DNA of 64,000 nt, taken from Cirrosporium novae-zelandiae (taxonomy: Eukaryota). Both the position numbers and the translations under genes were made by a program. Shown here piece by piece: positions 3,001 through 48,238 of the stretch. Each line of letters begins with the position of its first letter. Position 1 is the first letter of the stretch. The notes below the pieces were generated by a model. It ran no database searches. It saw nothing but the letters and a program-made list of their open reading frames with translations, and was not told where the DNA came from. The stretch is from positions 124,001-188,000 of the forward strand of contig JAPETS010000014.1 of the NCBI GenBank assembly GCA_026023565.1, given 5' to 3'.

Positions 3001-4790
3001 CCATCGACAGCCAGTCGGGCTATAACATCAGGTGCTAGGGAACTGGCTTTTGCCGAATCTTCAGCAATTAACGACCACTTTGAGAGCCAGTTGCGAGGTA
3101 TATCCGTTGCGAAGTCGGGGGTTTTTGCAGCTTCTTGAATTTCCTTCATGAACTTTTGCTTGCGTTCAATTCTAGCGAGTAAAGAGCCAAATCCATACTC
3201 TGGAGAAGCAGCTATCGTCGAGGATATTCCAGCATCATTTGCACCTAGTCTATTTGCGACATAAAGATGTTCCCCGAACACTTGGGTTAATATCTTCCAG
3301 TAGGCGCCCTCCACTTTTGGTTTTTCTAATGATGTTTTTTGTCCCTGCTTGAAGGGCTTCGAACGACCGACCGTGAGGTTCTGGAGAGGCGACGGAGAAT
3401 GAAGGTTTTGATAGATTCCTCGTAAAGCTTGCAAGGCAGTTGCGGACTCAACATGCTCCAATTGAAAGCCAACGATGAGTATCTTATCGCCGGGTGTAGA
3501 CCTTGAATTTACCGTTGAAAGTAGATCAAGTAGTACCGGACCCCATTTTGTTGTTTTCGTCCGTAATTGCTCCAAGACCGCAATCCTTTTTATCGTTCCG
3601 GGAATCTCTTTTAGAAGCTCAGAAGCGAGCCAAGGTCTATAAAGACGAGCTGTGATTATGCCTAAGTTTTTAAGATCATCCGGAGCATCTGCTTCCAATT
3701 GGTCCACGAAAACTCCTGTAGACCCGAAAATGAATAGCGCAGCCTGTGCGTCTTCAGGGCCAGTGTACTTAAAAGCATTATATTTTCGGTTGGTCTCGGA
3801 GGATATCACGGCCCAAATTTTCAGTAGAGAGTGATAAATGTCTTCAGAGGAGATGGGTCTTGTGGTGGTCGACTCTACCGAGGTAGCAGAAGAAAGCGTT
3901 TGTCGGCTATCAGTACTACTCTCTCTAACGGAAGATCCTACCGAGGAGCTTTGGTGACTTGCTGTAGTCTGCACTGAAATATCATTTGGGGCAGTTGGTG
4001 GAATTGAGGCGCCCCTATTATGAGATGGTGCAGTTTCGGTAATTGTCGCAAGTCTTCCGTCATCAGCGTAAAGCGACGCCTGGCTTTCTTTGAGAGTGTG
4101 GGATTCCTTCACCGATTCCCAATCAACCACCTTCTGTATTAAATCTTGACTTTCATTCACAATCGGATCATCAAGGGACAGATTTCCAGGATCAAAGAAA
4201 TGTATCACGCCCTTTCCTGTCTTAATGGCCAAGGCATGCGCAGATAGGGCGAGATCTTGTGCTTCTTGTAATGTCTCCGACTCCAAAAATGTGAACCCGC
4301 ACTGTCGTATAGAGGAAATATCCGAGTAGTCAATGGATTGAGAGCAACTCAGTGAGACATGTATGACAACGGGGAATTGCGCAAGCTTGTATAGATGGGG
4401 AATGGAGGGCAAGAGAATCGCAGAATTTGTAGTTACCGACACTAATCGGCCTGAGTTGATTGGCTCAAACGCAGAGAGGAGCGGATCATCATTTTGTCGA
4501 ATAAACAGTATCTGAATTTCTAGTCAGTAGCTGGCGGTCGTTTCTAAGAGCGCGTCGTACGTCAGGAAGCCCTTTTGCCACCAGCCCATGAGCCTTTTCT
4601 CCAACCAGCTGTTGCAAGCTCTTTGAGAAGTCGGTCTCAATTCGAAGTGCAGGCTGAACAGAAATTACAACATCGCTAAGGAGATATGCGATCCTCGCAA
4701 CTATTAGCCATATTAGTTGACGGCTTGAAGGGGCGAAAATATCTCAAAGCACATACTCACTTCCCCAGCGGATGAGGATACCGATTCCAT
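46..4790 (-). CDS. MET5: Sulfite reductase (NADPH) beta subunit / hemoprotein: PFOR-like N-terminal domains, flavodoxin domain and siroheme NiR/SiR domains; 4 exons
   Basis: ORF 120..4442 has flavodoxin motifs (YASDNGNAE, TSTAGQGEFP, GLGDSHY) and SiR motifs (KLTTRQTFQFHG, ACGDVNRNV, YLPRKFK, SACVAFPTCGLA, MTGCPNGCARP). Manual splicing: ATG at 4790 (MESVSSSAGEV|IARIAYL, donor GTATGT at 4756), a second intron near 4561-4512, and a last intron after FHDD giving VADEDAEDEE-stop ending at 46. Confidence 0.96.
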
Positions 4791-46915: not shown

Positions 46916-48238
46916 TTACTCATGTCTACCCAAATACTGATAAACAACCGAGAAATCCTTCCCCTTGTATTCCTGCTCCACCATTTCATAGACCCTCCGA
47001 GCTGTTTCAGCAAGCTCTAGTTTTGCTCCGGCCTTTTCAGCAGCCGCCATTGCTAGTATAAGATCCTTTTTCATTAAACTAACTCCGAACCCGCCATTAT
47101 AATCATCAGATGCCGGGGCATTATCGAGAATTCCTGGTACTGGATTATTTACTTCACTCGACCAACATTTCCCGGAGCTTGAATTGATCAGATCTGCTAG
47201 AGCTTTGGGCTCTAGACCCCACCTGACTCCTAGATTCATAGCTTCCGCAGTAGCTATATTGCTGATTGCAAGAAGGTAGTTGTTTGCCAATTTTGCGGAG
47301 AGCCCAGAACTCTGTTCGCCCATGTGAATAACCCGTTTCCCCATCAAGGATAGAGCCTCCTTAGCTCTCTCAATAAGGCTTCCGGTTTTCGATGATGCGC
47401 CCAGCATAAAAGTGAGGGTTCCTGCTTGAGCACCAACAACCCCACCAGACATTGGGGCATCGACAAATCTGCCAGAATGATGGGTATGTACAGCATTCGC
47501 CACTTCTTTGGATGAGAGAGGGTCAATTGTGGAGCAATCAATGAATAGACGCTCTGTCGTTGTTGAAGACTTTTCGGGCAGCTCTCCAGAAAGAATATTG
47601 TGGAAAACGGATTTGACATGACTTGGTTCAGGTAAGACGGTGATTATGGTATCCTCTCTCAAGTCAGTTCATGGCACTCGGTAATGAGAAATTAACACAG
47701 GGCAATGAATGAAGTACAAAATCAGAGGATTGGCTGTCGATTTGAATGTAATCAGGAAAAGACCACCTGAAGGCAGCCCCAACTTAGATCATCAAAATAG
47801 ATCAACTCATCATGTCAGATGCTCGGAAAATCAATAGCAGGAGTACTCACTGATCGTTCTGCGACTTCTCTACAGCCACTAGCAATCTCTATTCTGGTTC
47901 CTTTAAATGAGACCCCATGATTTGATGTTGTTACCCCAGCCTCCTTGACAAATTTATCTGTGGTATTCACATTCGTATCATAGATGATCAATGAATCTGA
48001 TTCGGGTATCTTCGCTCGAAGGTTTTTGGCCATGGGGTACCCTAAGGGAAGAATCAATGCAAGGTCTTAGCATATGAATGATTATGTTTAGAGCTGTACC
48101 CATTCGGCCCAATCCGATGAAACCCCATGTTGCTTGCTGTTGAGTAGTGGTTGCAAAGCTTCTTCTCAGAGAAGAAGGGCTGGTTCTGGCCCGTGTCGAT
48201 CTTAGGACCGTTGCAGGAAAGGTAGCTAAAACACTCAT
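46916..48238 (-). CDS. Mitochondrial 3-hydroxyisobutyrate dehydrogenase (HIBADH/MmsB); 3 exons
   Basis: Arg/Ser-rich presequence, WGFIGLGRMG|YPMAKNL, DCSTID, FVDAPMSGG, AKLANNYLLAI, NNPVPG, GGFGVSLMKKDL and KDFSVVY. Confidence 0.95.
47718..47818 (-). ncRNA. Candidate intronic box C/D snoRNA in HIBADH intron 2
   Basis: C box ATGATGA (47813-47807), internal CTGA (47755-47752) and terminal D box CTGA (47725-47722), spanning 92 nt inside an unusually long intron of about 197 nt. Confidence 0.6.

Follow-up and report, generated by a model that had tools for sequence, protein, structure and literature searches.

Box C/D small nucleolar RNAs (snoRNAs) described for domain IV of the 25S ribosomal RNA (rRNA) include snR62/SNORD34 (U34)/Nc CD22, intronic guides for a uridine of this domain, and Nc CD28 of Neurospora crassa. 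SNORD50 (U50)/Nc CD16 guides methylation in the stretch of helices 62 and 63 (h62-h63), at N. crassa 26S-Gm1907 according to the accessible part of PMC2780460, which gives U50 as the human homologue. In the available part of a bioRxiv report (10.1101/2022.02.24.481786), h62, h63 and expansion segment 27 (ES27) form stable duplexes in the earliest pre-60S particles and are later unwound by Spb4 at U1937-A1945. The accessible portion of the yeast modification table (PMC5199042) lists no 2'-O-methylated nucleotide (Nm) between Um1888 and Cm2197 of S. cerevisiae 25S, and the available portions of the Arabidopsis and plant maps list none between Um1892 and Um2114. A further group of snoRNAs carries conserved extra pairing elements, mostly between boxes D' and C', that stimulate methylation, up to five-fold in the accessible text of van Nues et al. 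2011 (PMC3116282). Here we describe a candidate box C/D snoRNA carried by intron 2 of a 3-hydroxyisobutyrate-dehydrogenase-like gene of Cirrosporium novae-zelandiae. It lies on the minus strand of the 64,000-nucleotide stretch analysed (contig JAPETS010000014.1, positions 124,001 to 188,000; hereafter the window), and the guide next to its box D is predicted to direct methylation of the nucleotide equivalent to yeast U1937.

An intronic box C/D snoRNA with two predicted guide regions

We consider it likely that minus-strand positions 47722..47813, which span 92 nucleotides from box C to box D, encode a splicing-dependent intronic box C/D snoRNA with the layout C - guide - D' - hairpin - C' - guide - D, whose D guide would direct methylation of U1937. 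This assignment draws on the sequence, on a family alignment and on a covariance-model match at 47717-47818. An earlier sequence-only reading had proposed that the intron holds a box C/D snoRNA whose D guide matches large-subunit (LSU) rRNA, and this proposal is borne out by the conservation of boxes and guide in 62 of 80 orthologous loci and by the presence of the target in eukaryotic LSU rRNA. The minus strand of 47818-47718 has exactly the letters reported in that reading, including perfect C and D boxes 92 nucleotides apart (47813-47807 to 47725-47722).

Box C, AUGAUGA (47807..47813), has an invariant GATG and is, as a whole, at least 90% conserved among 51 aligned sequences. It is followed by the D' guide GUUGAUCUAUUUUG (47793..47806) and by a degenerate box D', AUGA (47789..47792), which is kept directly before an invariant element across the family. 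This accessory element, UCUAAGUUGG (47779..47788), leads into an internal hairpin of 8 base pairs between D' and C' (47760..47779; -9.3 kcal/mol), in which the family keeps the structure while the sequence varies. The degenerate box C', UGAUUA (47749..47754), has a TGAT that is invariant in the 51 sequences. The D guide core AGCCAAUCCU (47726..47735) and box D, CUGA (47722..47725), complete the RNA, and box D is invariant in the alignment. Boxes C and D are kept in 51/51 aligned sequences, the only variation being A/T at position 2 of box C in three of them.

The order of the boxes had appeared non-standard in the sequence-only reading, with a second TGATGA (47794-47789) preceding an internal CTGA (47755-47752). 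This irregularity is only apparent. The order is the canonical C - D' - C' - D, because the second TGATGA holds D' and the internal CTGA overlaps C'; both internal boxes are degenerate yet conserved across the family. The second guide, upstream of D', and the conserved accessory element had been overlooked. Antisense elements characteristic of the box C/D class are found at both boxes, with 10 base pairs at D and 11 base pairs at D' on surrogate fungal ribosomal DNA (rDNA).

A short terminal stem is common in box C/D snoRNAs, and is not obligatory for intronic ones. None is found in the window, as had been remarked before: the flanks reach -1.3 kcal/mol (z = 0.8). The absence of a stem is a family trait: a flank duplex of -5 kcal/mol or lower is seen in just 8 of 53 members. 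The five strongest external stems (9-12 base pairs, -10 to -19 kcal/mol) surround the snoRNA in orthologue loci L064, L091, L092, L093 and L115, which have near-identical flanks, group together on the host tree and carry 2-5 extra nucleotides between D' and the accessory element.

In the window, the end of box D lies 57 nucleotides from the branch A (47664), close to the roughly 60 nucleotides estimated at first, and 68 nucleotides from the exon. Across the family the distance from box D to the exon has a median of 72 nucleotides and falls within 45-90 nucleotides in 52 of 53 members. Splicing-dependent intronic box C/D snoRNAs follow a positional rule for the distance between box D and the 3' splice site, and the near-constant distance seen here fits splicing-dependent assembly.

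Predicted target of the D guide

The D guide pairs over 10 base pairs with 25S AGGAUUGGCU, A1933-U1942 in yeast numbering, and the fifth-nucleotide rule places its predicted target at U1937, opposite A47730. Pairings were checked on surrogate fungal rDNA contigs. A scan of genome contigs for complements of both guides gave at least 35 contigs, at least 30 of them with the sites in rRNA context, and all six site-bearing contigs compared with Rfam matched LSU_rRNA_eukarya. Yeast numbering was set on an S. cerevisiae-like 25S fragment (L028, offset +3), where the expected base is present at 15 of 15 known Nm positions; the list of positions is confirmed by the accessible part of the table in PMC5199042. 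The numbering also agrees with the placement of U1937-G1940 and C1941-A1945 in h63 in the available part of bioRxiv 10.1101/2022.02.24.481786. Complementarity of the D guide to LSU rRNA and selection of the first U by the D+5 rule, both put forward in the sequence-only reading, hold up: AGGAUUGGCU is present in eukaryotic LSU rRNA contigs, and the U, still as a prediction, corresponds to U1937. Its remark that this site is not known to be methylated in yeast matches the gap between Um1888 and Cm2197 in the accessible yeast table (PMC5199042).

Other targets were considered and rejected. Identity of the D-guide target with yeast U1888, the snR62 site, is ruled out by the L028 numbering, in which U1888 (AAUAAU followed by GUAG) lies 49 nucleotides upstream. 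The sequence-only reading had further noted that GCTGCCTTC is complementary to small-subunit (SSU) rRNA GAAGGCAGC. The SSU sequence is indeed present in the fungal-type contig L021, but GCTGCCTTC covers the 5' arm of the variable hairpin together with its loop, adjoins no box and is unconserved. We regard this 9-mer as a chance match because it lies in the variable hairpin and because a 9-10-nucleotide match to rRNA is expected by chance. A 10-mer over C', TTCCTGATTA (window 47749-47758, minus strand), complements the SSU part of L021 and was also judged to be chance, since its TTCC part is unconserved and at least one 10-mer match to rRNA occurs somewhere in 11,499 of 50,000 shuffles (23%). 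An exact-pattern scan of viral contigs for the rRNA sites gave no matches.

Among the matches listed, 30 of the 35 contigs are eukaryotic rDNA in assemblies labelled as bacteria or bacterial metagenome-assembled genomes, evidently through contamination; examples are L028 and the fungal-type contigs L002, L014 and L021. In L003, a contig of eukaryotic rDNA within a Nostoc assembly, the LSU rRNA is interrupted by a group I intron (RF00028, 59.2 bits) at 3038-3458 of the minus strand, and the rDNA may come from a lichen-type partner. Four single-cell alphaproteobacterial contigs (L012, L015, L026 and L034) share an identical non-rRNA stretch in which both search motifs lie 13 nucleotides apart; this is probably a conserved gene segment matched by chance.

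The accessory element mirrors one strand of helix 63

The accessory element has an exact 10-nucleotide complement, CCAACUUAGA, 147-149 nucleotides downstream of the D-guide site in Pezizomycotina-type rDNA (L002, L021), and 9 of its nucleotides match in the yeast-like contig. Its CTAAGT and the next G are invariant in the family. CCAACUUAGA is the h63 partner of UCUAAG, whose first letter is also the final nucleotide of the D-guide site. The 5' and 3' hexamers of h63 are Watson-Crick complementary in 16 of 16 contigs with both strands, among the matches listed, through five different pair types. The 5' strand of the rRNA reads UCUAAG-GG-UUGG, and the accessory element is the same sequence minus the 2-nucleotide bulge. 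The calculated duplex energy of the accessory element with the 3' strand is -15.1 kcal/mol, compared with -13.1 kcal/mol for the rRNA's own strands. Because it copies the 5' strand of the rRNA without the bulge, the element would compete for the 3' strand.

As its complement lies on the opposite h63 strand, the accessory element probably helps to open this helix for the short D guide. It shares the properties of extra base-pairing elements: it lies 3' of D', is invariant, does not occupy a guide position and has its complement on the partner strand of h63. The element would broaden the concept of extra base-pairing, which would then include pairing with the target helix's opposite strand. Such opposite-strand pairing offers a simple model, testable by mutation, for how a 10-base-pair guide could reach a pre-formed duplex.

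Conservation of the family and a covariance model

A search of metagenomes with the host exon gave 80 fungal orthologue loci, without taxonomy, at 57-71% identity. AGCCAATCCT followed by CTGA is present in the orthologous intron of 62 of the 80 loci; these 62 were identified by this exact guide-plus-D motif. The alignment comprises the window and 50 distinct complete copies (51 sequences in all); large insertions led to the omission of L079 and L081, and contig ends truncate L070 and L090. Along the alignment, box C is followed by a variable guide, ATGA, the invariant TCTAAGTTG, a hairpin whose sequence varies, TGAT(T), a spacer, AAAGCCAATCCT, CTGA and unconserved flanks. Box C, ATGA (D') with TCTAAGTTG, TGAT (C') and AGCCAATCCTCTGA are invariant or at least 90% conserved, and the intron flanks are not. 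Alignment of the orthologous introns, a check named in the sequence-only reading, therefore finds both boxes and guide conserved.

The internal hairpin is also supported by covariation. Of the 6 pairs that RNAalifold predicts, 4 show compensatory changes, and when the linkers are folded singly, at least 5 base pairs form in 50 of 51 and z falls below -2 in 44 of 51.

A covariance model (R1) was built from the 51-sequence alignment, with the window in the training set, and finds one copy in the window at 73.3 bits. It recovers the four loci that were not used in training, L090 (62.3 bits), L079 (56.9 bits), L081 (49.1 bits) and L070 (23.1 bits), and gives no match in loci whose intron lacks the snoRNA. 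The RNA of L079 (522-646) has a 27-nucleotide A run in the spacer ahead of the D guide, and in that of L081 (29-175) the internal hairpin is expanded by 57 nucleotides; boxes and guide are intact in both.

The remaining 18 of the 80 loci comprise two that extend too little upstream, four that are intron-less at this position, eight with a short intron lacking the RNA, three with a C/D-like RNA carrying another D guide and one that is unclear. The three C/D-like RNAs lie in the orthologous intron of L066 (~674-760), L105 (~815-904) and L111 (upstream of the exon). All three keep box C, have a different D guide and are missing the UCUAAGUUGG element; L066 and L105 retain a consensus-like D' guide and score ~18 bits with model R1. 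It is possible that they are target switches or decaying copies.

The D' guide and a probable change of target

The D' guide appears to be a second, more changeable module. In the window its 3' 11 nucleotides (47803-47793) pair 11/11 with 25S CAAAAUAGAUC, C1907-C1917, with A1911, opposite T47797, as the predicted target. This version is unique among the 51 sequences, in which the consensus is UUGUUCUAUC. In 29 of the 50 distinct orthologues, the D' guide matches GAUAGAACA(AU), yeast 1878-1888, over 9-12 nucleotides, with A1881 as the predicted target; this consensus site lies 55-56 nucleotides upstream of the D-guide site. The other 21 have no rRNA match of at least 9 nucleotides, and several of them are one-mismatch variants. 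The uniqueness of the window D' guide explains why an exact-pattern metagenome scan with the two window-type guides, spaced as they are here, gave no matches.

The calculated energies separate the two versions. The window D' guide reaches -13.6 kcal/mol at its new site and -7.3 kcal/mol at the old one, and the consensus guide reaches -12.4 kcal/mol at the old site and -5.7 kcal/mol at the window-type site. A midpoint-rooted FastTree phylogeny of the host exon nests the window within sequences that carry the consensus guide, which suggests that the switch is probably derived. A1881 corresponds to N. crassa 26S Am1859, which the accessible part of Liu et al. (PMC2780460) assigns to Nc CD28. The family D' guide would therefore be redundant where it overlaps Nc CD28, and this redundancy may have permitted the switch in the window. 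The altered guide would be a clean example of switching between neighbouring sites with a common AUAGA core.

It is also possible, though we think it unlikely, that the window D' guide is a decaying second guide, that its 11-nucleotide match to 1907-1917 is fortuitous and that only the D guide works here. The D' guide is the most variable module, as the 21 orthologues with no match of at least 9 nucleotides indicate, its window version occurs in none of the 50 other copies, and a single rRNA match of at least 10 nucleotides is found in 23% of whole-RNA shuffles. However, the 11-nucleotide match ends exactly at D', which is reproduced in only 15 of 20,000 shuffles, the new site lies 26 nucleotides from the other target in the same rRNA domain, and the guide's energy there matches what the consensus guide reaches at its own target.

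Proposed mechanism and alternative explanations

In the mechanism that we propose, the host precursor messenger RNA would be spliced, and the snoRNA would be trimmed to ~92-100 nucleotides and assembled with Snu13, Nop56, Nop58 and fibrillarin. The D guide would then pair over 10 base pairs with 25S 1933-1942, placing U1937 at the fifth position from box D for 2'-O-methylation. This target lies at the h62/h63 junction, in helices that form stable duplexes early in pre-60S assembly, where pairing of UCUAAGUUGG with the h63 3' strand CCAACUUAGA may help the short guide to gain access. The D' guide would address A1881 in most family members and, in its rewritten window form, A1911.

Several points weigh against this interpretation. 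The D guide is short, with 10 base pairs followed by a C-C mismatch, and a good guide is no guarantee of modification: the predicted snR190 (Gm2395) and snR57 (Gm1142) methylations are absent in yeast according to the accessible part of PMC5199042. The surrogate rDNA contigs were retrieved with a pattern containing both window-type sites, and the invariance of guide and box D is partly the result of selecting the 62 loci by that very motif. Of the 78 orthologue loci that could be assessed, 16 lack the RNA; some lineages can thus dispense with it. Function of the window D' guide is without comparative support because its sequence is unique among the 51. There is no terminal stem, and Rfam 15 at gathering thresholds gave no match in the window or in 20 orthologue loci. 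From the observed anatomy, conservation, covariation and complementarities, we infer that the RNA accumulates, binds the box C/D proteins and directs methylation, and that the accessory element acts as a helper.

A chaperone role is known for snR190. It is conceivable, but improbable, that the RNA described here forms a real box C/D ribonucleoprotein that acts mainly as a folding chaperone or placeholder, holding h63 and ES27 open early in the pre-60S particle with little or no methylation. Such a role would suit an RNA complementary to both strands of h63, in a region whose early duplexes are later unwound by Spb4 at U1937-A1945 (accessible part of bioRxiv 10.1101/2022.02.24.481786), and the missing snR190 and snR57 methylations in the same portion of PMC5199042 provide a precedent. 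On the other hand, the invariant D guide adjoins a perfect D box in exact register, as expected under selection on catalytic geometry, and similar extra pairing elements stimulate methylation in the accessible text of PMC3116282.

We consider it very unlikely that the conserved block is a cis-acting intronic element that controls how the host gene is spliced or expressed, as opposed to a trans-acting RNA. A review reportedly treats cis roles of snoRNAs within their host loci, and the constant intron and fixed distance from the 3' splice site would be in line with such an element. However, what is conserved corresponds exactly to the C, D', C' and D boxes, the rRNA-complementary stretches and the covarying hairpin, and 12 of the 78 assessable loci manage without the block (four intron-less at this position and eight with a short intron lacking the snoRNA).

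Chance controls bear on the simplest alternative. The two strands of the window contain 13 arrangements of RTGATGA and CTGA separated by 60-120 nucleotides, and only the snoRNA candidate has at least 10 nucleotides at D complementary to fungal rRNA. Three duplexes of at least 10 nucleotides inside 260 nucleotides of rRNA arose in 1 of 50,000 shuffles of the 92-mer. Although RTGATGA and CTGA are short and neither a terminal stem nor an Rfam match is found, chance co-occurrence of short motifs in a long intron is effectively refuted by conservation in 62 of 80 orthologous introns, together with the covariation and the shuffle controls.

A guide snoRNA for U1937 thus remains our preferred interpretation. 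It adds an unannotated, widely conserved snoRNA family to the fungal repertoire, and predicts a 25S modification, at the U1937 equivalent, that is absent from the accessible parts of the S. cerevisiae and plant maps. The predicted site is exactly where Spb4 contacts rRNA during 60S assembly in the available part of bioRxiv 10.1101/2022.02.24.481786. More speculatively, and with considerable reserve, we suggest that a lineage-specific snoRNA might clamp both strands at the base of h63/ES27, with the guide on the 5' strand and a bulge-free mimic on the 3' strand, and so act as a strand-invasion device at the Spb4-gripped U1937-A1945. A 2'-O-methyl group on the first base that Spb4 reads could time or replace part of h62/h63 remodelling, and rewriting of the second guide in the window lineage toward a new A1911 site 26 nucleotides away could represent a target switch caught in the act.

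Host gene and intron

The host gene, a 3-hydroxyisobutyrate-dehydrogenase-like gene on the minus strand, was identified from its reading frames and from Pfam matches to NAD_binding_2 (5.9e-19) and NAD_binding_11 (8.4e-26). Exon 3, which runs up to the stop codon, occupies 46916..47653 and holds both domains; exon 2 (47851..48041) was read off the sequence directly. Intron 2 (47654..47850, 197 nucleotides), as delimited from the reading frames, has a 5' GTGAGT at 47850, a branch sequence ACTGAC at 47668-47663 and a 3' AG at 47655-47654. Intron 1 (48042..48099) measures 58 nucleotides. The junctions at intron 2 (...AERS/DTIITVLP) and intron 1 (GLGRMG/YPMAKNL) both agree with intron-less orthologues. 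Intron 2 had been described as about three times the usual size; this is correct relative to the 58 nucleotides of intron 1, and the snoRNA accounts for the extra length. As a carrier of the snoRNA, intron 2 should not be treated as neutral sequence in annotation or engineering of the host gene.

Within host exon 3, at 47550-47626 of the minus strand, a weak, truncated SNORA5-like Rfam match (13.8 bits, E = 2.1) was judged to be chance.

Comparison with known snoRNAs

The Rfam covariance-model check proposed in the sequence-only reading assigned no family. At E values up to 10, only chance-level matches appear in 47550-47950 (DLEU2_4, SNORD61 and, in the exon, SNORA5). The best sub-threshold C/D match, SNORD61, scores 17.2 bits (E = 6.9), where its threshold is 43.

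The accessible parts of Table 1 for N. crassa (PMC2780460) and Table 1 for A. fumigatus (PMC2377427), the available text and tables of the T. rubrum survey (PMC3890542) and the legible parts of the S. pombe supplements (PMC4138321) list no guide directed at these positions. The available main text of the fungal snoRNAome (Canzler et al. 2018, PMC5824354) mentions no such guide, although its supplementary tables might list the family, and the accessible part of PMC7277114 has no match to the terms sought. Full-text literature searches on the RNA motifs gave only 3 unrelated primer matches, those on the target-site names gave no paper on a snoRNA, and none linked a snoRNA to a 3-hydroxyisobutyrate dehydrogenase intron.

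A close parallel is snR62/SNORD34/Nc CD22, which, like the snoRNA described here, is an intronic box C/D guide for a U in 25S domain IV. In contrast, its target is U1888 (N. crassa U1866, S. pombe U1942 in the accessible parts of the sources), 49 nucleotides upstream of U1937, and snR62 and SNORD34 have no sequence or Rfam similarity to the snoRNA of the window. Nc CD28 shares a site with the family, as its D guide is assigned Am1859, the site of the consensus D' guide. However, it is a 78-nucleotide RNA whose other guide addresses Am1845 (U95/snoR33-like), and it has none for the U1937 equivalent in the accessible part of PMC2780460. SNORD50/Nc CD16 acts in the same h62-h63 stretch but, in the same portion of that source, targets other nucleotides. 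With snR70, snR75, snR13, U18 and others, the snoRNA shares a non-guide element between D' and C'; in the accessible text of PMC3116282, such elements lie mostly in this position and form 4-11 base pairs near the methylation site. Unlike these, the element described here pairs ~148-165 nucleotides away, across the helix that begins at the target, with its opposite strand.

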